Virus record (IMG/VR): IMGVR_UViG_3300042013_000045
Coordinates: 96,001-160,000 of that record
Reading direction: 5' to 3' (one strand)
Source of the DNA: a virus
DNA length: 64,000 nt
The translations under genes were made by a program, and so were the position numbers. A model generated the notes under the pieces. The model was not told the DNA's origin and searched no databases. It saw only the letters and a program-made list of their open reading frames with translations. The first letter of the stretch is position 1; each line of letters opens with the position of its first letter. Below, piece after piece: positions 2,866 to 59,420 of the stretch.

Positions 2866-4968
2866 ATGTACGGTAGTGTTGCACGACTCGTTGGGTTCGT
2901 GTCTGTTAAAGAAACGGATTCTCACATTATAGTGAATGGTATCCCTGGATTGCGGTTCAGTCGAGACGTGTATAATTACTGGAAGACCAGTAAGATCAAC
3001 AACAACATGTTTTCGGCAATCTCCAAATCCCAGGTCAAGTTCCCGAAGTTCTTCGCGATCGAAGTCGACTATATGTTCCAACGGCTCCTAGAGAGTCGTC
3101 GCACATCAGTCTCCCGTCGCATCCTTCAGAAGTCGATTGAGGAGTTGAAGTCTCATACATGGTTGAGTAAAATCGGTTCTGGTCAGTTCAACAGTAAGCT
3201 GGACTTCAGCAAACTAAAGGACCTGAACGTCACACTATTTGCCCACCAACTTTCTTTTTTACAGACGTACGACGTTACCACGCAGGAATATTCCCTCAAT
3301 GGGATGCTCATGGACGTGGCGGCTGGTGGCGGTAAAACCATCACCGGATATGCCCTTGGCCACCTTTTGGGTTCTGACACACAGATCTACGTGGTGCCTA
3401 AGAACTCCGCGGTTGACGTGTGGGAGAAGACCATCGCTAAGCAGCTCCCTGCATACGGGGGTGAGTACTTCTTCAAGAACGGTGTACCAGACTACTGGTC
3501 GTCCATGCACGGTACTGAGCCATCGCTGGGCAAGAAGATCTACATCGTTCACTACGACTACCTCGAGAAGTTCCTGAAGTTCGTCAAGGCCAACAAACGC
3601 GCTTTTGGCAAGACCTTCATCGACATCGACGAGTCGCACAACTTCAACGAAGAGTCGCAGCGTACCGGTACGTTGATTGACCTGTGCCTGACCTTGGACG
3701 CCAAAGACGTGGTACACGCCTCGGGTACGCCATTCAAGGCCATGGGCTCTGAAGCGATCACTCTGCTGTCGACCATCTGCCGCGACTTCACTCCTGAGGC
3801 TAAGGCAGCCTTCCGGAAGATCTTTGGTAAGGAAGCCAAACGCGCTAACGAGATCTTGGCTAACCGGATCGGCATTGTTTCCTTTAAGGTACACAAGGCG
3901 GACATCGAGACCCCAGGCGTGGATTACCACACGGTCAAGGTCAAGATCCCTAACGGCGATCTGTACACCCTGGATGCCATCCGCATCAAGATGACCGCGT
4001 TCATCGATTCGCAGATGAAGATGTACCAGAAAGGGATGCCTGAGTACCAGCAACTGTACGACCTGTGCATGGAACTCCATGGCAAGTCTTTGGCACGAGC
4101 GGCTCCTGTACAGATCAAGGCTTTTGAACTGTACAAGACTTACATCAAACAGATCCGTAGGGGTTACGATCCTGTGACCATGAAAGACATGGTGATGTAC
4201 TGCAACCGTTACGAGCTGAAGAACATTGTGCCTTCGCTGCCAGAAGCGTACCGTAAGCCGTTCATCAATGTACGGGCTATCATCAAGTACGTGGAACTGA
4301 AGGTCTTGGGTGAAGCGCTGTCGCAGGTACTGGGCAAGTTGCGTATCCAGTGTCATTTGGACATGCTGGCGAACATGGGTCTTGAAGACATCATCGACAA
4401 CGCGCAGAAGAAGACAGTGATCTTTACCAGCTACGTCGAAGTGGTCAAGTCGTTGGAACTGGCATTGCCGCAGGCTGGGTATAAGCCGCTCTTCGTTTAT
4501 GGTGAGACCAACAAAGACTTGCCAGCGATCATCAAGAAGTTCCATGAAGACCCAGATGCCAACCCACTGGTAGCGACCTTCAAGTCACTGTCCACTGCTG
4601 TTCCGCTGACGGCTGCCAACACACTCGCCTTCACGAACTCCCCGTTCCGTGACTACGAACGTACGCAGACCATCGCACGGGTTGACCGCATCGGTCAGGA
4701 CCAGCGTTGCCATGTGCACGACATCTTCTTGGACACTGGGGAATCGCCAAACATCTCCACGCGCTCTAAGGACATCTTGAGCTGGAGTAAGGAACAGGTC
4801 GAAACGATTCTGGGTGTGAAGACACCGGATGACATTGAGGCTTCTCTGGAGGACTTAGCAGAGAACCCGAATGCTACCCTGACCTCCGCTGAGGACTTCA
4901 TCGAGAAGCTCAAAGCAGAGCTGCCGATCGACGTCATCGAGACTGATGGCATCGAGCGCGAGGAATAA
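2866..4968 (+). CDS. SF2 (SNF2/DEAD-like) helicase
   Basis: Walker A AAGGGKT, DESH motif II, SGT motif III, QTIARVDRIGQ motif VI. Confidence 0.9.
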   Translation: MYGSVARLVGFVSVKETDSHIIVNGIPGLRFSRDVYNYWKTSKINNNMFSAISKSQVKFPKFFAIEVDYMFQRLLESRRTSVSRRILQKSIEELKSHTWLSKIGSGQFNSKLDFSKLKDLNVTLFAHQLSFLQTYDVTTQEYSLNGMLMDVAAGGGKTITGYALGHLLGSDTQIYVVPKNSAVDVWEKTIAKQLPAYGGEYFFKNGVPDYWSSMHGTEPSLGKKIYIVHYDYLEKFLKFVKANKRAFGKTFIDIDESHNFNEESQRTGTLIDLCLTLDAKDVVHASGTPFKAMGSEAITLLSTICRDFTPEAKAAFRKIFGKEAKRANEILANRIGIVSFKVHKADIETPGVDYHTVKVKIPNGDLYTLDAIRIKMTAFIDSQMKMYQKGMPEYQQLYDLCMELHGKSLARAAPVQIKAFELYKTYIKQIRRGYDPVTMKDMVMYCNRYELKNIVPSLPEAYRKPFINVRAIIKYVELKVLGEALSQVLGKLRIQCHLDMLANMGLEDIIDNAQKKTVIFTSYVEVVKSLELALPQAGYKPLFVYGETNKDLPAIIKKFHEDPDANPLVATFKSLSTAVPLTAANTLAFTNSPFRDYERTQTIARVDRIGQDQRCHVHDIFLDTGESPNISTRSKDILSWSKEQVETILGVKTPDDIEASLEDLAENPNATLTSAEDFIEKLKAELPIDVIETDGIEREE

Positions 4969-8392: not shown

Positions 8393-8416
8393 GGTGTTCT
8401 CCTTAAGAACGGGGTA

Positions 8417-8478
8417 GATAGAAGAGAATGTTCTTCCTATTCACCTCTACAATGTATTGCCAAGATATTTTCGAATTG
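8417..8478 (-). promoter_or_regulatory. Early-type promoter (TACATTGT) with 5' leader hairpin
   Basis: Minus strand ATTCGA...TACATTGT..GTGAATAG; similar modules at 13236-13295 and 52302-52360. Confidence 0.65.
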
Positions 8479-8486
8479 AAGCGATG

Positions 8487-8521
8487 CGGCATAAAGCCGG
8501 GACCGAAGTCCCGGCTTTATG
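8487..8521 (-). terminator. Hairpin + TATGCCG terminator
   Basis: CATAAAGCCGGGAC-cgaa-GTCCCGGCTTTATG; TATGCCG on the minus-strand 3' side. Confidence 0.8.
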
Positions 8522-9277: not shown

Positions 9278-9352
9278 GGCTATTTACCTGTAAGATGATT
9301 CATAGTAGACGGCATAAAAGGAGAGCCTAAGCCCTCCTCTTATGTTTAAGCC

Positions 9353-10144
9353 TTAGTAGGCCGATGCCTGAACTGGGTTCAGGTGAAGCAGTACGGACAA
9401 CGGTTGGGTCACCGAGGTGCTGTTGCGCGTGACGACAGCGGACAGTTTGGTCAGGCCACGGAACGCTTTGCGCTGGCTACGGCGGTTCTCGTAAGCCAGC
9501 ACCGCTTTCAACACGCTGGTGATGGTCTTTTCGATGGCCAGGCGCTTCTTCGAGATCTGCTTGGCAGTCACGTGCAGTTGGCGATAAGCAACGCCGCCTT
9601 TGTCGCTGAAGAAGTTGATGGTGTAGTCAGAACCCAGCGGATTAGTCTGTGCCAGTACGGTGTGGTCGATCGGATCGGTGTCCAACATGGTCACAACCGG
9701 CGGGGTAAACAAGGCGCGCTGTTCGAAACCGGTCGGCAGGGCTTCCGCTACAGCAGACTTGACATCGGCTGTTGGTTTGATCGCTGGCTTCGCAGTAACG
9801 CGCTTGGCGGCTGGTTTAGCAACAGGGGTCGCTGGAATAGCGGTCTTCTTGATGCCGTCAGCTGGGGCGATCTTGGCCACTGGCTTCTTCGCCGCCGCCG
9901 GCAGTACAGTGCCGACTGGTTTCTTACTGGCTGGCAGTTTCTTTGCAGTAGCCGGTTTAACAGCAGGGGCAGTTGGGGCTTTCTTCGCCACGGCGGGCTT
10001 CTTTACTGCTGGAGCCTTGATCGAAGCGGCCGGCTTTTTAGCGGCAGCAGGCTTCTTGGCTGGAGCAGGTTTCTTCGCTACTGGTTTGGCAGCGGTGGTG
10101 GTGGCTGGTTTCTTCGGTGCAGCGGCTTTCTTTGGAGCTGGCAT
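9353..10144 (-). CDS. Histone H1-like / AlgP-like Lys-Pro-Ala-rich basic protein
   Basis: About 130 aa of KKPA/KPAA repeats followed by a globular-looking C-terminus. Confidence 0.65.
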   Translation of the reverse strand: MPAPKKAAAPKKPATTTAAKPVAKKPAPAKKPAAAKKPAASIKAPAVKKPAVAKKAPTAPAVKPATAKKLPASKKPVGTVLPAAAKKPVAKIAPADGIKKTAIPATPVAKPAAKRVTAKPAIKPTADVKSAVAEALPTGFEQRALFTPPVVTMLDTDPIDHTVLAQTNPLGSDYTINFFSDKGGVAYRQLHVTAKQISKKRLAIEKTITSVLKAVLAYENRRSQRKAFRGLTKLSAVVTRNSTSVTQPLSVLLHLNPVQASAY

Positions 10145-10948: not shown

Positions 10949-11285
10949 ACGTCACCTTTGGCTTATTAATTACAATGATGCATTGTGCTCGTGTTCCTCT
11001 GAATGCCTTTTCGAACTGCGACAGCTCTTTCAGATAGGGATCGTCGAAGGCGAAGGTCTCTTCACTGCACCAGCATATGTGCCAGTAGTGAGAGTCGTCT
11101 CCTTCCTTCAATGCGATGTTCCACTCTGAGTAGTTATAGCGAGTCATACTCAATGTCCCTTCGATGATGTTCACCGGGGACATGTCTAGATAGTCATCAC
11201 GTGTCGCTTGACTATCGTATAGGTAGTGTTCAAGGTCATTAGCGTCGAACCGAGACTGTGGATGGAAAATCAACAGCTTCTTCAT
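10719..11285 (-). CDS. Hypothetical protein
   Basis: Start MKKLLIF; protein-like composition. Confidence 0.6.
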   Translation of the reverse strand: MKKLLIFHPQSRFDANDLEHYLYDSQATRDDYLDMSPVNIIEGTLSMTRYNYSEWNIALKEGDDSHYWHICWCSEETFAFDDPYLKELSQFEKAFRGTRAQCIIVINKPKVTYVVYKLEAEISDLLALHLADILGNVDNHSYTPEMAEWIGLGAEYLRHTVHVEPEALSGGRTHNGRPAPTEALSVVD

Positions 11286-11348
11286 CGTAGTGGCTCTTAG
11301 TCTATTACAGGATTTGAGACAACATTCTAATTTAACGCAGGGATTACC

Positions 11349-13337: not shown

Positions 13338-13637
13338 TCACATGGTTGGACACCGTGACTTGGCTACAGCCAGAAACTCAGCGTGGATGTCAAACAGTTG
13401 ATCCATGGTGGTAGCGGTTTGTACAGCATCGATGAAGTGACCAGACGAAGCCATGATGTGCGATAGGAGCACACGTACGGCGTCAAACTCATCACCTACT
13501 AGCTTTTCCACGGGAGCGGTCTTCCACGTCTCCATGAGGACCCTGAGGGCGTTAGCGTTGCGATACACCTCTAACCACTTACCAGAGTTGCCACGGTCGA
13601 TGTTGATGCTACTGGTTACTTGAACGACTGGAGTCAT
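13338..13637 (-). CDS. Hypothetical protein
   Basis: ATGA overlap with upstream DUF1353 gene. Confidence 0.6.
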   Translation of the reverse strand: MTPVVQVTSSINIDRGNSGKWLEVYRNANALRVLMETWKTAPVEKLVGDEFDAVRVLLSHIMASSGHFIDAVQTATTMDQLFDIHAEFLAVAKSRCPTM

Positions 13638-14041
13638 GTGCGTTTGCCTTTCCAGCGTTTGCCCCCGAAGAGACGCACGCCGCCGTAGAAGATAGCGCTA
13701 CGCCAGAGGGCTACCCCCTCGTTACGCAATGCTCGGAAATAGATAGCGTCAGCGTCAGCCCGGTAAATGGTTGCACCGGAATCAGGAAGGCCGCCACCGT
13801 AGAGATAATCGTGGATGGTTGCTGCTTTATCCCCATACCCTGCCAACAGAGCGTAGATGATAAAGAAGCCAATGTCTCGCAAGGTTTTGATCGAGGCAAA
13901 GTCGGTGAAGCTGTTAGCAGGTGCGGTGATCACACCATAAACAGCATCGACACAGCTGAACGGTGCCAGCAGCATCTTCTTACGTTTGCCTACGTGACGG
14001 GTGTCTAAGTTGCCAAAGACAGATGTATCGGTGTCAGCCAT
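13634..14041 (-). CDS. DUF1353 family protein
   Basis: FTDFASI, AATIHDYLY, ADAIYF, GVRLFG motifs. Confidence 0.8.
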   Translation of the reverse strand: MADTDTSVFGNLDTRHVGKRKKMLLAPFSCVDAVYGVITAPANSFTDFASIKTLRDIGFFIIYALLAGYGDKAATIHDYLYGGGLPDSGATIYRADADAIYFRALRNEGVALWRSAIFYGGVRLFGGKRWKGKRT

Positions 14042-14088
14042 GACAGGTTCCCTAAGAACACAAAAAATAAAGGTACTTCATATCATCA

Positions 14089-14886
14089 CGGCATAAGAAA
14101 GGAATGGCCCCCACTCATCTAAGACTCTCGATGTATCCCCTAGCCCTTGGGCTGGTTCAATCATGGAGTCGGTAGTGAGAGGAGGCACATTGATACAGCT
14201 CGCATTGCCTAAGGAGGGATGCGATGAGGGACGTCTATCCCTTATAAGGCGGAACTTAATCCGTTTTGGCTGTTGTCGGTTCGGCCATGGGCTTACAGGG
14301 TCTGGAACCCTGGGCTTGGGGCCGTAGTACTCGTCATGCGGCGTGGTAATGTGAACAGTACAACCTGCTGAACGGCGGCCTGTTCGGGCGACTCGAAGGT
14401 TTTACCCGGACGATGTCGAACGAACTTGGCGGCAACCGGGACTGTGTAAAGCGACGCATCGCTATTCACTCCCGTGGGTGCAAGTTGAACATGGCAGGCT
14501 TCGGGTTGTTTATACCCGATAGCACCGGCATTACTGAAGCACATTACTAATCCGCAGACAATTGCGGCGAAGCTCAGTTCAAGGTCCTTAGAGGGATACG
14601 TTTTCCCTCGGAGTAGGAGTTCATATTTTGCAATCACGTATCAGGCGCCCCCAGACGACCACCTTATGGTCGCGGGGATGCCGTCGCACGGACAGCGTGG
14701 TAGGGTTTCGCGGTATCATCGGCACGGCGTGGATGCGTATCCAATCAGCGCGGAGCGACGCAAGAACTTGCGCCCTCCAAGTGCTGTAGGAAGCCCTAAG
14801 CGTCCTAAACACATCACGCAATGCCGAGAACAGAGACGGCATTCAGAACATCCTTTTACAAACTACCGGCAATCTTTTCATCATAG
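14089..14886 (-). ncRNA. Candidate large structured ncRNA (~800 nt)
   Basis: No convincing ORF in a coding-dense genome; many short hairpins; bounded by TATG (14882-14885) and TTTCTTATGCCG. Confidence 0.55.
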
Positions 14887-14908
14887 CACATTGATATCAT
14901 GGAATTAT

Positions 14909-15457
14909 TTACCGGCGTTCGAAGTCCAGTTGGTAAATGTGACTGAGGAAGTCGTGACCGTGTTCGAGGAGTACTTCGCTTACATTCTCGTTGGACGACA
15001 TCTTCTTCATCTTTACAATGCGCCCGTTCTGCACAGTAAGTCTGACATAATAGCCAAACTCTTGCAGGTTAGTGTTCAGGTCGATGGTGTGAGGGCCATG
15101 TACTTTCCAATTCGCGCCCTCGAACAAGTTGATACCCACACGAGAGACCGTCTCAACCTCAACCGTGGGCACAACTTCAGCCGATAGATGAGACGCTAGT
15201 ATCACCGCAGCGTACATCTTCGCGTGGATAGCTGCCTGACCACCAGTGAGGGACATCAGTTCCTCGAGTTCGGCGACTTCGCGCTCCATCTCCAGTTTAC
15301 GGAACTCTTCGAGAAGCTCCTCCAGTGGTCTCCAGTGCGTGGTTGTCCAGATACCGTACACTTCACCCTCATCGTCGGTGATGAGCTTTACAGGACGTAG
15401 GTTATTGATCACTGGTGGGCTCCCCTTTAGGTCGGACAGGTGTAGTTGTGCAATCAC
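14909..15457 (-). CDS. Hypothetical protein, paralogue of 15402-15962
   Basis: Shared G-I-W...E-L/M-x-E-E and NW-V-G motifs. Confidence 0.6.
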   Translation of the reverse strand: MIAQLHLSDLKGSPPVINNLRPVKLITDDEGEVYGIWTTTHWRPLEELLEEFRKLEMEREVAELEELMSLTGGQAAIHAKMYAAVILASHLSAEVVPTVEVETVSRVGINLFEGANWKVHGPHTIDLNTNLQEFGYYVRLTVQNGRIVKMKKMSSNENVSEVLLEHGHDFLSHIYQLDFERR

Positions 15458-15962
15458 GTCCTTCGAACAGTTGGTGCATGTCGGTACCGTAAGGAATGAT
15501 GACCTCTTCGGTCTGTACCCACGCCTGACCGTTCCACTTGGACAACCCTACTACCAGTTCACCGTCAAGATGGACTGAGTATCGAGTATCGAGTTCAGGA
15601 TCTCTGTCATTAAGGATCTCGAACTCGACCGACATTGTACCGGTCACGCCCCAGTTAGGGTTAGACAGCGGTTCGAAGACTGTCTTACCGATGATCTCAA
15701 CCACGTGAAGACCGTTCATGGCTTTCGTGTTGACAACCAAATGGCGAAGACGACGACTGACTTCCATCATCTTCGCGAAATCTGTATCAGTGCCCATGTA
15801 CGCACGGATCTTCGCCAGTTCTTCTGCATGACCAAAGGTTTCCAGTTCCTCAAACATCTGTTCGATGCCTTTCAGTTGGTTCTGATACCAGATGCCGGTC
15901 ACCCCGTTCTCGGGATCGTACTTCAATGTGACAGGGTATTCGCTGTGATAATCATACTGCAT
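15402..15962 (-). CDS. Hypothetical protein, paralogue of 14909-15457
   Basis: GGAG RBS; shared motifs with neighbour. Confidence 0.65.
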   Translation of the reverse strand: MQYDYHSEYPVTLKYDPENGVTGIWYQNQLKGIEQMFEELETFGHAEELAKIRAYMGTDTDFAKMMEVSRRLRHLVVNTKAMNGLHVVEIIGKTVFEPLSNPNWGVTGTMSVEFEILNDRDPELDTRYSVHLDGELVVGLSKWNGQAWVQTEEVIIPYGTDMHQLFEGRDCTTTPVRPKGEPTSDQ

Positions 15963-16019
15963 CGGTCTTCTCCGGCGGATTATTTACGAGTTTTACGACG
16001 GCTGACTCTTCAGGGTTCC

Positions 16020-16607
16020 TTAAACACAGCCATGGGTGCGGGCACCGGAATCTTCTTTAGGTTTTGCTATAGAAGCCGTAGGGATGTCCACTGGATACTT
16101 CTTGGCGTGAATCTCCTTGACAGTCTTGATGAGTTCCTCGACGTTGTACCATTTGTATTGTTCAGCCTGGCGGATGTCAGAACGTACCATGAGGTCTTGG
16201 ATCTCTTCACGGGTCTCGCCGATCAGCATTGCGGCTTGGCCCTTCTCAGACTGTGACTCACTGCCAGAGTACGCCCAAGAGACACCTTCACCCATTGGCA
16301 TGGCACGGCAGTACTTCTCGTCATCGTCGCCATTGAGACCATTGGTCAAAGTGAACTCCATGTGGAACAGTTCCCCTTCCAATGTCAACAACAACACCTT
16401 AGGGAAGGATTGGGTCCCGTCGACACCGGCTTTCTTACCGTCCATCCACGGTTTGAGGTTAGTGGCAGCTTGGTTGAGCCAGATCATCAATCCCTTGGAG
16501 CAGACCCACCATTCCAGCGGCATAAAGACTTGGGTCATGCCAAAGGTGATGATATTGGTGTTGAAGAATAAGTGACCGTCTTTGTAGATAATAGTCTGGG
16601 CACTCAT
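16020..16607 (-). CDS. Divergent HslV-like paralogue (probably inactive)
   Basis: QTIIYKDGHL mirrors TTIVYKDGVL of neighbour but lacks the N-terminal Thr. Confidence 0.45.
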   Translation of the reverse strand: MSAQTIIYKDGHLFFNTNIITFGMTQVFMPLEWWVCSKGLMIWLNQAATNLKPWMDGKKAGVDGTQSFPKVLLLTLEGELFHMEFTLTNGLNGDDDEKYCRAMPMGEGVSWAYSGSESQSEKGQAAMLIGETREEIQDLMVRSDIRQAEQYKWYNVEELIKTVKEIHAKKYPVDIPTASIAKPKEDSGARTHGCV

Positions 16608-17134
16608 GCTTTAATCTCCTTTGGGAACGCCTTCAGTTGCGTGTGCTTGATGGAAAGGACTTTGCTTGGGTAAGTGTAGTAGTCGAGCTTAATACCCCAC
16701 TCAACGGCTTCTATGGCCGTCTTACCGGCCAAGCAGGCAACCATCGCCGGATCACGGCCCGTACCGATAGTGCTGAACTCATCGCCGATGAGACGAGAGA
16801 AGTGCTGAGTATTGTCTCGACGAACGCCACGACTGTAAGCACAGTCTTTGGTGATGATGATCCAGTCACGACCATCTAAGACATCCGTGATCTCTTTAGG
16901 GATCACGGTCGTAGGAGCGAATCCGTCGCGATGGGCCATGAAAAAAGCAAGCAGCTTGATTTCAAAGTCCTTGATCCAATCGGGGTCAATGATCGCTCCA
17001 GAGATACCGTACGCAAAATGTTTACACGCACTGATACGAATCTTGGGGTAGGTACTGATGTAAGCCACCGACGTACCGGTCACAGCGGATGAATCAGAGG
17101 CGAGAACGCCGTCTTTATAAACGATCGTAGTCAT
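16604..17134 (-). CDS. HslV-like Ntn-hydrolase / proteasome-beta family peptidase
   Basis: MTTIV..G..ASDS N-terminus, conserved K, IGTG motif, A.EAV...D. Confidence 0.75.
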   Translation of the reverse strand: MTTIVYKDGVLASDSSAVTGTSVAYISTYPKIRISACKHFAYGISGAIIDPDWIKDFEIKLLAFFMAHRDGFAPTTVIPKEITDVLDGRDWIIITKDCAYSRGVRRDNTQHFSRLIGDEFSTIGTGRDPAMVACLAGKTAIEAVEWGIKLDYYTYPSKVLSIKHTQLKAFPKEIKA

Positions 17135-17153
17135 GAGAGTTCCCTAGGGTTGA

Positions 17154-17186
17154 CGGCATATAGCGCAGCACTAGTGCTGCGCTATA
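17154..17186 (-). terminator. Hairpin + TATGCCG terminator
   Basis: TATAGCGCAGCAC-ta-GTGCTGCGCTATA. Confidence 0.75.
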
Positions 17187-17204
17187 CTCAGGCCGGACAG
17201 TAGA

Positions 17205-20767: not shown

Positions 20768-20967
20768 GTGTTGCTCCTTGCGGTTAAAGTTTGATGAAAC
20801 GTTTGCGGATCAATGCCACAAAGCGTTTATAAAGGGTTGGCTTTTGTTTGCGGTACTTCGTTTGGATATGTTGCATGGTGACATTGTTACCGTAGGTTTT
20901 GCACACTTTACTTCATCGTCCTAAGTGCTAGCACAACATGGTTAGGTTGAGTATCTTTTTACCCTCA

Positions 20968-21002
20968 CGGCATAGACAGGAGCCCGCGAAGGCTCCTGCC
21001 TA
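20968..21002 (-). terminator. Hairpin + TATGCCG terminator
   Basis: CAGGAGCC-cgcgaa-GGCTCCTG. Confidence 0.7.
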
Positions 21003-21011
21003 GCTATGGGT

Positions 21012-23364: not shown

Positions 23365-23572
23365 GAATCCTTCGTGCTTAGTGGTTAAGTTTGCCCCTCT
23401 TTGTGGGCTTGTCACAGTATAAGCACGACCTTAAGATAACTGGGACTTTTATAAAAGTACTTGGTTAACGGTAAAGTCGAGTTGAGGCGACCACCTTCAC
23501 GTTAGTAATGTAGGTCCTTAATAAATTTGAATGGAGGGCATAAAAGCAGGCCGAAGCCTGCCCCTATGTTTA

Positions 23573-25231: not shown

Positions 25232-25326
25232 GGTTATAATCCTGTACTGAAATTGACGCGACATAGTATCTCAGCAAAAAAGAATGCATACACAGCGGAG
25301 CCGCAATGGCTCCGCTGTGTGATGAC

Positions 25327-29969: not shown

Positions 29970-30082
29970 GAGAGTTCCTTAGAATGGTTATTGCCGCATC
30001 AAACAATGGTAGTGGTTTTTTCTAAATGACTAACTCCTCCGCTATTCACAAGGATAATGTAGCGCCAGATAAAAGTTAAAGG

Positions 30083-30113
30083 CGGCATATCCGGGAGGCC
30101 GTAGCCTCCCGGA
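30083..30113 (-). terminator. Hairpin + TATGCCG terminator
   Basis: TCCGGGAGGC-cgta-GCCTCCCGGA. Confidence 0.75.
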
Positions 30114-30118
30114 GTCGG

Positions 30119-36843: not shown

Positions 36844-36950
36844 TAGCCTCTCCTTTAGAGGGTTTATACTACAAGGATAATGTATGTTTATTATCTTTTA
36901 CAAGAAAGCGGCATAACTCCCCCTCACCATCAAGTGAGGGGGAGTCTGTA

Positions 36951-40180: not shown

Positions 40181-40183
40181 ATA

Positions 40184-40222
40184 GCATATCGGGGAGAGCA
40201 TTACGCTCTCCCCGATATGCCG
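40184..40222. terminator. Bidirectional hairpin terminator, TATGCCG on plus side
   Basis: GCATATCGGGGAGAGC-attac-GCTCTCCCCGATATGC. Confidence 0.8.
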
Positions 40223-40227
40223 TGTGC

Positions 40228-41576: not shown

Positions 41577-41771
41577 GCTACTCTCCCGGTTACACAAGAT
41601 CAGATCACATCGCAATTAATAACCAGATGCGCATACGGCATACCCTCCCACCCAGCCAACATGGACCGAGTGGGAGGGCGGTAGATTGAGTTCGTGTGCC
41701 TAAAGGCGTTCGAGTCAGTACTCTACAAATAATAGTCAGGGTTGGTTTTTATTTACTATTGTTGGGTTTAC

Positions 41772-43087: not shown

Positions 43088-43165
43088 ACTGGCGTACCGT
43101 TTTGGTGATGGACATACGATACGGCGGCATAAAAGCCCCTAGCGCTTGGCTAGGGGCGTGTTCTA

Positions 43166-46744: not shown

Positions 46745-46832
46745 GGATGTGAAGTTCCCGGCGTTTGGCTACGACGAAGTCGATCTGCATGCGGCGGGTT
46801 CTTCACATAAGGTATTGATAAGCAGGAATTTT

Positions 46833-57084: not shown

Positions 57085-57161
57085 GGTGTCGAGCCTCGTA
57101 GCCTAGTAAGGGTTGCCTATACGATTAGCCCAGATCACGTCACAAGCAAAAAAGAAACAAG

Positions 57162-57203
57162 CGGCATAGAGCCCCTCAGCCTTAGTGGCTGAGGGGCTCT
57201 ATG
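57162..57203 (-). terminator. Hairpin + TATGCCG terminator
   Basis: CATAGAGCCCCTCAGCC-ttagt-GGCTGAGGGGCTCTATG. Confidence 0.8.
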
Positions 57204-59057: not shown

Positions 59058-59060
59058 TAA

Positions 59061-59420
59061 CTAAGCGTCCGTAGATGTGAAGTTAAGCGCATTCTTCCAA
59101 GCGACTATCTCTTCTCGCTTGTAGAGTTGTTTGTGCCCGACCTTCGCAGTGGGTTGAGGGAACGGTGGTTTACCACGAGGTACCTTTCCGGCGATGTACC
59201 GATGGATGCTCGTGTGTGCTACGCCCAGATACTTGGTGACTTGAGCACGGGTTAGGAAGTTGTATTCGTTGTAGCCAGGGAACGCCATCTCGGTTGAGTA
59301 GATCTTCAGGACTTCCCGCGCATCCACCAGAGCGTTCAACAGCTCACGTTGGCGCTCAATGTCCGCGTCGAGTAGCTGTATCGCTTTGGTTAGTGTTTCT
59401 TGATGCGTTGAATTATCCAT
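59061..59420 (-). CDS. AlpA/excisionase-like HTH protein
   Basis: LT..QV..YLGV...SI.RY.....FPQP......Y...EI..W. Confidence 0.75.
   Translation of the reverse strand: MDNSTHQETLTKAIQLLDADIERQRELLNALVDAREVLKIYSTEMAFPGYNEYNFLTRAQVTKYLGVAHTSIHRYIAGKVPRGKPPFPQPTAKVGHKQLYKREEIVAWKNALNFTSTDA

Follow-up and report, generated by a model that had tools for sequence, protein, structure and literature searches.

The question raised by this locus is whether an interval of an uncultured jumbo phage in which no credible gene had been seen encodes a large RNA, proteins, or both. It lies in a window of 64,000 nucleotides (nt), the whole stretch of DNA analysed here, which corresponds to bases 96001-160000 of the IMG/VR record IMGVR_UViG_3300042013_000045 (172,837 bp, estimated completeness 65%). 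By protein similarity, the nearest cultured relatives of the record are the Pseudomonas jumbo phages pPa_SNUABM_DT01 and PaBG. The interval studied comprises 867 nt (14042-14908), between a DUF1353 gene and an open reading frame (ORF) of 182 amino acids (aa), and a preliminary description had proposed for it a stand-alone, late-expressed noncoding RNA (ncRNA) of the size of GOLLD and ROOL. The analysis instead favours, with a probability of roughly 0.58, a reading in which minus-strand positions 14882 to about 14096, termed the cassette below, form one self-contained unit; its product, an mRNA of about 790 nt, would be bicistronic and heavily folded, with hairpins that gate its second ORF (ORF2) in cis. 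The features of the cassette and its borders, each with its Shine-Dalgarno (SD) sequence where one applies, are as follows.

14882..14906, minus strand: 25-mer AATTCC-N5-ATCAAT-N4-TATG, promoter-like and of putative function, marking the cassette's 5' edge
14851..14855, minus strand: SD sequence AAGGA of ORF1, 8 nt before the ATG
14621..14842, minus strand: ORF1, 73 aa (MPSLFSALRD...), leader-like
14644..14693, minus strand: hairpins a0 and a, a 3-bp stem followed by an interrupted 15-bp stem, at the 3' end of ORF1
14591..14609, minus strand: hairpin b (GAGGGA...UCCCUC), abutting the ORF2 SD on its 5' side
14585..14590, minus strand: SD sequence UAAGGA of ORF2, 6-8 nt before an NTG start
14293..14577 (coding 14577..14296), minus strand: ORF2, 94 aa plus stop, with an N-terminal hydrophobic helix (SFAAIVCGLVMCF...)
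14282..14324, minus strand: hairpin c (inner 7-bp stem 14296-14312) and outer helix c', around the last codons and the stop of ORF2
14250..14263, minus strand: hairpin d, CGGA-UUAAGU-UCCG, nearly invariant and 100% paired
14228..14241, minus strand: hairpin e, GGGA-N6-UCCC, 78% of cells paired, with compensatory variants GAG/CUC and GGC/GCC
14200..14224, minus strand: hairpin f, with the loop CCCUCCUUAGGC; 14208-14217 reads CCUCCUUAGG
14096..14191, minus strand: terminal compound stem-loop (14103-14191) and then a U-rich tract, terminator-like
14089..14095, minus strand: punctuation motif UAUGCCG, about 45 nt upstream of the DUF1353 start

The interval is conserved as a unit, which became visible through its neighbour. 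Distant-mode blastn against 50,697 GenBank phages found no match to the cassette, and blastn against five related jumbo-phage records gave chance matches only. Exact and degenerate DNA patterns in IMG/VR matched a single contig, that of L002 (L numbers denote the relatives' loci, and WIN the window's own sequence), while the patterns in a metagenome collection produced 0 true matches, all 32 candidate loci having failed the profile test. The 182-aa neighbour, used as bait, recovered no relatives either. Because the DNA searches were almost empty, the DUF1353 protein was used as bait and its contigs were examined. Wherever the DUF1353 of a relative is at least 55% identical, the 870-1000 nt immediately upstream of it are homologous to the gap, and full-length matches in a profile nhmmer search had E-values of 1e-128 to 1e-233. 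Full-length copies lie directly upstream of DUF1353 in L002, L021/22/23, L024, L025/26, L027/28, L029, L030, L033-36 and L072-74. In L033 and L034 this adjacency persists although genes at a greater distance upstream are different. Carrier phages derive from samples SRR25078846, SRR28403158, SRR31159452 and JGI 3300042934. The carriers make up about 10 distinct lineages of uncultured PaBG relatives with pairwise identities of 40-97%; between WIN and L002, perfectly conserved runs reach 85 nt, compared with flanks that are 81-87% identical. In its own whole record, a covariance model of the element (R1) matched the cassette itself only and found no second copy. The cassette is described as a new, uncatalogued structured two-ORF RNA whose range is limited to one small clade of PaBG-like jumbo phages, none of them cultured.

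Known RNA families do not account for it. In the whole window at the gathering threshold, cmscan reported six tRNAs only, none of them in the cassette, and in 13900-15100 at E<=10 it gave only a chance small nucleolar RNA match of 15.6 bits against a threshold of 43. The Rfam families considered were GOLLD, ROOL, OLE, HEARO, RNase P, transfer-messenger RNA (tmRNA) and group I/II introns. The preliminary description had recognised no RNase P, tmRNA or group I/II intron signature, and Rfam agrees on each; ARAGORN likewise placed no tRNA or tmRNA here.

The coding evidence centres on ORF2. Across four phylogenetically independent pairs, synonymous and nonsynonymous codon differences numbered 49/128 in frame, compared with 35/319 for the remaining frames of the sense strand (p=3e-7, Fisher test). 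When all six frames were compared in 8 lineages, the ORF2 sense frame was the best and the sole one free of stops in all of them. Parsimony changes by codon position are 55/51/85 in ORF2 (p=0.004), versus 62/62/61 in the 3' untranslated region (3'UTR), and omega, the ratio of nonsynonymous to synonymous rates (NG86), is 0.16-0.5. Among five close sequences (WIN, L002, L021, L024, L025), ORF2 contains a single 3-nt indel, and its flanks contain 1-nt indels. From its NTG codon the frame is open in 12/12 lineages over 94-112 codons: 94-95 codons in 8 of the 12, and 104-112 in L025, L030 and L029, which read on where the others end at or near the stop inside hairpin c. Since ORF2 is under coding selection, the cassette is not a stand-alone ncRNA of the GOLLD or ROOL type.

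The beginning of ORF2 is marked by CUCUAAGG at its SD, which is invariant in all 14-17 sequences. An NTG start stands in the same alignment column, 6-8 nt after UAAGGA, in 10/12 lineages. It is CTG in the seven lineages of WIN (CUG at 14575-14577), L002, L021, L072, L074, L024 and L029, ATG in L025 and L030, and TTG in L027; in L033/L034 the alignment is gapped at this point, and the start would be either an ATG that directly adjoins the SD or a TTG located 6 nt further on. In the segment from the CUG to the first AUG, WIN and L002 differ by 5 synonymous and 2 nonsynonymous changes, and L021 and L072 by 3 and 0. Because of these third-position synonymous runs, translation must begin upstream of that AUG, and in this genome ORF2 appears to start at a rare non-AUG codon, CUG. 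A 5'-extended form of 114 aa was considered and set aside, as the extension has in-frame stops in L002 and L024 and no coding signal. The preliminary view of a gap with no credible gene does not hold, given two conserved open frames with ribosome sites, and the 114-aa ORF noted at that time carries a significant coding signature in its 94-aa form.

As to the product, searches of Pfam and PHROG with every ORF within 14042-14908 returned no family match. AlphaFold2 (AF2) modelled a helix at residues 3-15 only, at a predicted local distance difference test score (pLDDT) of 52.6 with the rest at low confidence, and the model was too poor to be suitable for a fold search. ORF2 apparently encodes a small protein whose N-terminus forms a membrane helix and whose tail is disordered. 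A lipoprotein was also considered and dropped, with only 7-12 residues before the cysteines and no lipobox.

ORF1 is kept open in a different manner. In all lineages scored, an AAGGA precedes a start codon by 6-10 nt, and the frame is open in 10/10 lineages (58-84 codons), the other frames having 1-7 stops. Its substitutions by codon position are 63/61/60, with no periodicity, and omega is 0.5-0.8. The synonymous/nonsynonymous test is null (23/91 in frame versus 40/190 off frame, p=0.56) and detected no purifying selection on ORF1 at the amino-acid level. By this pattern ORF1 behaves as a leader ORF, whose translation seems to be selected and whose peptide does not. The AUG of ORF1 forms part of the 5' arm of a 6-bp hairpin (AUGCCG...CGGCAU, 14821-14842, minus strand) that is retained, with G-U wobbles, in L024 and L025; as it lies inside a kept hairpin, the start codon may be partly sequestered.

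Whether the folding exceeds that of ordinary genes depends on the controls. The minimum free energy (MFE) of the interval lies well below that of dinucleotide shuffles on both strands (z of -4.6 on the minus and -5.2 on the plus strand; 20 shuffles each). Covariance models (R1, R2) were built from hand-defined hairpins and all lineages were realigned to them, so that these alignments lean towards the model. Against a control in which the 3' partners were slid, hairpins a0, a and b (R1, alignment A5) have 89.7% of cells paired versus 41-47%, and 14 versus 2-4 pairs with both partners changed; for c', c, d, e and f the values are 84.9% versus 30-48% and 12 versus 4-7. The RNAalifold consensus of the whole cassette contains 128 pairs, with 84.5% paired versus about 40% and 65 both-changed pairs versus 26-35. 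A coding control made of DUF1353 and a 99-aa gene gave nearly the same enrichments, so the RNAalifold statistics were discarded and are not counted as evidence.

A non-circular test took the structure from WIN alone and scored it on an alignment that MAFFT had made from sequence only. Among both-changed pairs, 51-52% still paired, compared with 35-36% when slid (p=5e-6), with an excess in each part of the RNA: 0.47 versus 0.34 in ORF1, 0.55 versus 0.38 in ORF2, and 0.52 versus 0.34 in the 3'UTR. Three coding controls gave 0.38 versus 0.38, 0.44 versus 0.34, and 0.45 versus 0.32. At the level of single helices, four are strongly supported in the cassette, compared with 0-2 short ones in the coding controls. 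Covariation stands for hairpins a0, a, b, c, e and f, which show compensatory changes, but over the whole length the excess (0.52 vs 0.35) is modestly above that of coding genes (0.38-0.45 vs 0.32-0.38). Because the coding controls partly match the cassette, only some of its hairpins are securely conserved, and a fully ornate architecture of 800 nt is not supported.

The individual hairpins give the clearest examples. Those that the preliminary description had listed do exist; its entries 14655-14673, 14591-14609 and 14296-14312 correspond to the inner stem of hairpin a, hairpin b and hairpin c, respectively. In hairpin a (14644-14682), whose loop carries an invariant UAAGG, pairing survived in 8/8 both-changed cells of the inner stem and 9/12 of the outer stem; in distant lineages the ORF1 stop codon falls within it. 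The stem of hairpin b is present in all lineages, its arms co-varying as GAGAG/CUCUC, GAGGU/ACCUC and GAGGGG/CCCCUC. The inner stem of hairpin c is intact in every lineage (7/7 both-changed cells kept; 98% of cells paired in alignment A7), and the peptide encoded there shifts from PGFQTL to HGCGLC with the pairing unchanged. Hairpin d has one compensatory change, from G-C to A-U in L029, and the stem of hairpin f co-varies as CGCAU/AUGCG, UCGCG/CGCGA and GAACGU/ACGUUC. The terminal helix 14173-14191:14103-14121 (17 bp in the MFE structure of WIN) retained pairing in 20/30 both-changed cells. Three loops are invariant: UAAGG, UUAAGU, and CCCUCCUUAGG in hairpin f of the 3'UTR.

The strand of the RNA was judged from several sides. 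The preliminary description had seen G-U pairs on the minus strand only in two hairpins, and this signal is borne out at the conserved helices, where a minus-strand reading gives 68 G-U against 20 A-C combinations in the model-fitted alignment. Together with the ORFs and the flanking signals, the G-U excess places the RNA on the minus strand.

Synonymous divergence (dS) adds a further signal. In ORF2 it is 0.18-0.29, compared with 0.49-0.90 when the neighbouring DUF1353 gene is measured on the same pairs of genomes, a 2-4x reduction that fits an additional constraint at the RNA level. The low dS of the cassette may reflect either such a constraint or a recent recombination patch. The depression extends across both ORFs of the cassette; between WIN and L002, for example, dS is 0.215 versus 0.898 in DUF1353.

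Hairpin f offers a possible link between the two ends of the message. Its loop CCCUCCUUAGGC contains CCUCCUUA, the anti-SD sequence of the 16S rRNA 3' end, and twice, unprompted, RNAalifold paired this loop with the ORF2 SD over 8 bp (UCUAAGGA:UCCUUAGG). The anti-SD motif occurs in 13/16 sequences, and both sides of the SD:anti-SD pairing are invariant. We infer from this prediction that the pairing could form. No enrichment of CCTCCTTAGG was found in the genome.

The borders of the cassette are also marked. At the 5' edge, an A-rich stretch and TATGA are kept in the relatives (alignment columns 1-30). The promoter-like 25-mer has only two occurrences in the 172,837-bp record, the other being at window positions 46806-46830 (minus strand), upstream of the tRNA island. 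As it is found only before the tRNA and structured-RNA island and before the cassette, its distribution suggests that the two share a rare promoter class. At the 3' edge, a terminator scan reported a hairpin and T-run at 14102-14116, and the sequence UAUGCCG(U)NAUNNUAUG is invariant across all lineages. In the whole record, TATGCCG occurs 29 times, versus 14 for a reversed-sequence control. A GC-rich hairpin followed by U(2-4)AUGCCG recurs at 10 or more minus-strand intergenic sites of the window, and perfect GC-rich hairpins with U(1-4)AUGCC(G) directly after them were noted at the following positions:

8393-8521, minus strand: hairpin and U(1-4)AUGCC(G)
9278-9382, minus strand: hairpin and U(1-4)AUGCC(G)
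17135-17204, minus strand: hairpin and U(1-4)AUGCC(G)
23416-23572, minus strand: hairpin and U(1-4)AUGCC(G)
25265-25326, minus strand: hairpin and U(1-4)AUGCC(G)
29970-30118, minus strand: hairpin and U(1-4)AUGCC(G)
36847-36950, minus strand: hairpin and U(1-4)AUGCC(G)
40181-40227, minus strand: hairpin and U(1-4)AUGCC(G)
41616-41771, minus strand: hairpin and U(1-4)AUGCC(G)
43088-43165, minus strand: hairpin and U(1-4)AUGCC(G)
57085-57200, minus strand: hairpin and U(1-4)AUGCC(G)

UAUGCCG may be part of a terminator, or a promoter or -10-like element of the next unit fused to a terminator; host RNA polymerase carrying a phage sigma factor might be what reads it. The idea of bracketing signals thus survives for the 25-mer with its TATG and for the recurring hairpin with UAUGCCG, but not for the exact 12-mer UUUCUUAUGCCG, which is present as a single copy in the window; the shorter combination of hairpin and UAUGCCG is preferred.

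The proposal of late expression leaned on an analogy with phage phiKZ, whose late promoter is T(-3)ATG(+1) (PMC7598289). The cassette resembles it in having TATG at its presumed 5' end and TATGCCG after terminator-like hairpins. It differs in that its motif is longer (UAUGCCG) and tied to hairpins, and the factors reported for phages of the PaBG group are sigma-70-like (PMC7412058), not phiKZ-type polymerases. Domains of the beta and beta' subunits of a multisubunit RNA polymerase were not found in the 65%-complete record. The timing suggested earlier is accordingly not retained.

In the favoured reading, the transcript would run from the promoter-like 25-mer through a leader with a ribosome site, ORF1, hairpins a0, a and b, and UAAGGA with its NTG (CUG here) into ORF2; the stop of ORF2 lies in hairpin c, and the 3'UTR after it, about 200 nt long, would comprise hairpins d, e and f as well as the long terminal stem-loop and U-tract. 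Most likely the conserved hairpins work in cis, gating or limiting the translation of ORF2 and stabilising the RNA. Pairing of the hairpin f loop CCCUCCUUAGG with the ORF2 SD UCUAAGGA would place the whole of ORF2 in a loop and hide its ribosome site, and the weak CUG start would act as a further brake on output. Ribosomes on ORF1 would have to melt hairpins a0 and a, adding another layer of control, and the hairpins at the terminus and the stop codon probably protect the RNA as well. The product of ORF2 would be a small membrane-anchored protein.

Several observations weigh against this reading. The anti-SD motif is missing in L027, L028 and L029, which represent two lineages, and because both of its sides are invariant the SD:anti-SD pairing provides no informative covariation. 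ORF1 yielded a null result in the codon test. The whole-length RNAalifold statistics were equally good for a plain coding control, and two of the three coding controls also show a kept-pair excess, if a smaller one (0.44-0.45 vs 0.32-0.34). The ORF2 protein has no relatives in PHROG, Pfam or Atlas, its AF2 fold is of low confidence, its codon usage is atypical (a score of 0.06, versus 0.22-0.53 in neighbour genes), and in the WIN lineage it needs a rare CUG start. The cassette occurs in no cultured phage, PaBG and pPa_SNUABM_DT01 included; neither in these two nor in DUF1353 loci of greater distance (L003-L011) did the nhmmer profile or either covariance model find a match.

Among the other explanations, a dual function like that of RNAIII is possible but considerably less likely: the fold of about 790 nt would have a role of its own, for instance as a decoy or scaffold or by turning its anti-SD loop on other mRNAs, in addition to encoding the ORF2 protein. 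In a more specific form, of similarly low probability, a multi-domain fold would be co-regulated with the island of tRNAs and tRNA mimics via the shared promoter element, would act through the loops CCUCCUUAGG, UAAGG and UUAAGU, and would encode a CUG-initiated membrane protein and a leader ORF. Such a role would suit the compensatory excess in all three parts of the RNA, the lowered dS over both ORFs, the long perfect runs between WIN and L002, the invariant loops (UAAGG, UUAAGU, CCCUCCUUAGG), and a promoter-like 25-mer held in common with the tRNA and structured-RNA island alone. However, the whole-length signal is only moderately above that of coding controls, R1 matches nothing but itself, CCTCCTTAGG shows no target-like enrichment, and no observation demands a function in trans. 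It is unlikely that the cassette is simply two ordinary small phage genes with hairpins that are incidental or merely stabilising. Gene callers on the relatives' contigs already report ORF1 (58-84 aa) and variants of ORF2 (83-114 aa), and some apparently conserved pairing is found in coding controls too; but hairpins a and c keep their pairing through 7/7 to 9/12 double changes, even as the peptide turns from PGFQTL into HGCGLC, ORF1 lacks amino-acid constraint and yet has the best-supported structure in its 3' half, and dS is 2-4x below that of the neighbour gene.

The two remaining explanations are both highly improbable. A stand-alone ncRNA of about 800 nt like GOLLD or ROOL, with fortuitous ORFs, would match the dense hairpins and low MFE, the conservation of hairpins, the cassette's own bracketing signals and the lack of a protein family for either ORF. 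It fails on the coding signature of ORF2 (p=3e-7, the best of six frames), on the two frames that stay open in all lineages with SD sequences and start codons, on indels in ORF2 that come in multiples of three, and on Rfam, in which no family, GOLLD and ROOL included, matches even at E<=10. The preliminary description had named coding support for its 114-aa and 73-aa ORFs as evidence against such an RNA, and the ORF2 tests supply it for the larger; what stands of the undescribed large RNA is a transcript-like, folded, uncatalogued unit with conserved hairpins, but not its noncoding status. A type I toxin or lysis-timing module of the hok/mok kind, in which a membrane-damaging ORF2 would be silenced by the fold-back and ORF1 would serve as the coupling frame, is no more plausible than an ncRNA. 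It would explain a leader ORF ahead of a small ORF with an initial hydrophobic helix, a 3' element able to occlude the SD, and a structure-dense mRNA. ORF2, however, is 94 aa long, some 70 aa of it tail, and is not a peptide below 60 aa, the two ORFs do not overlap, and no gene or promoter for an antisense RNA was identified, the plus strand having weak sigma-70-like matches only.

Known systems provide points of comparison. Dual-function RNAs include Staphylococcus aureus RNAIII/hld (delta-haemolysin), SgrS/SgrT and SR1/SR1P. Like these, the cassette combines many hairpins in a large RNA with the coding sequence of a small protein; unlike them, its coding fraction is far larger, with two ORFs making up about 65% of the RNA. 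In the hok/mok/sok system of plasmid R1, as modelled by the Gerdes laboratory, a structured mRNA carries an upstream frame whose translation counts more than its product. The cassette shares with it a structured mRNA, a leader frame, a hydrophobic downstream ORF and a 3' fold-back, here predicted, that hides a ribosome site. In contrast, ORF2 is about 2x longer, the ORFs are non-overlapping, there is no sequence similarity, the fold-back targets the ORF2 SD and not the 5' end, and no antisense RNA was found. GOLLD (RF01998) and ROOL (RF03087) have in common with it a length of about 600-800 nt, a phage setting, numerous hairpins and a promoter-like motif that a tRNA cluster also has, but they are noncoding, whereas ORF2 is under protein-level selection and no covariance model of theirs matched at E<=10. 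An anti-SD motif in the 3'UTR of the S. aureus icaR mRNA reportedly pairs with the SD at its own 5' end, as Ruiz de los Mozos et al. are said to have described in 2013. Both cases have a C-rich, anti-SD-like 3'UTR motif complementary to the SD of the same mRNA, with repression as the predicted effect; the cassette's motif differs in lying in a conserved hairpin loop of a phage RNA and in copying the 16S 3' end (CCUCCUUA), and its pairing is predicted. The cassette belongs neither to the hok/mok-type mRNAs nor to the icaR type of anti-SD, which are its closest working analogies.

The locus bears on how jumbo-phage genomes are annotated, where such intervals are left blank or filled inconsistently; here the interval forms one conserved unit with likely true ORFs, including one with a non-AUG start. 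Across the relatives' intervals, gene callers gave ORFs of 114, 108 (antisense), 105, 104, 95, 83, 76, 73, 68 and 58 aa. The cassette also exemplifies dense RNA-level constraint over coding sequence in a double-stranded DNA phage, and its stop-enclosing hairpins, together with a 3'UTR loop that copies the anti-SD, make it possible to test directly whether translation of a phage mRNA is gated over a long range. For genome scans it carries a caution, as hairpin density and alifold-style covariation look equally good in ordinary genes when coding controls are left out. The main question that it raises is whether the RNA has a role beyond regulating its own translation.

The neighbouring genes lie on the minus strand throughout, and those that flank the interval are the following.

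13634-14041, minus strand: DUF1353 or 'tail assembly chaperone'-like gene
14909-15457, minus strand: 182-aa ORF, paralogous to the next gene but diverged from it (26% identity)

In PaBG (L038, NC_022096), about 1.5 kb between gp317 and tRNA-Ala, just upstream of its own DUF1353, is unannotated. Two stretches of that genome, neither homologous to the cassette by nhmmer or the covariance models, are of this kind.

867-2361, NC_022096: unannotated
2911-3195, NC_022096: unannotated

Small upstream ORFs in PaBG and L006 were considered as counterparts and rejected, as they are not ORF2-like.

The 182-aa ORF belongs to a tandem array (14909-17134, minus strand) of proteins of about 175-195 aa without a known family. 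Its members at 14909-15457 and 15402-15962 are paralogues (26% identity, E 3e-8), and the member at 16604-17134 (minus strand) matches a PHROG of the HslV-family peptidase (E 6e-16). The copy number of the array differs among relatives, the 182-aa copy being absent from L002. Other intergenic gaps, of 244-400 nt in a rough ORF map, lie at 10949-11348, 20768-21011 and 59058-59389.

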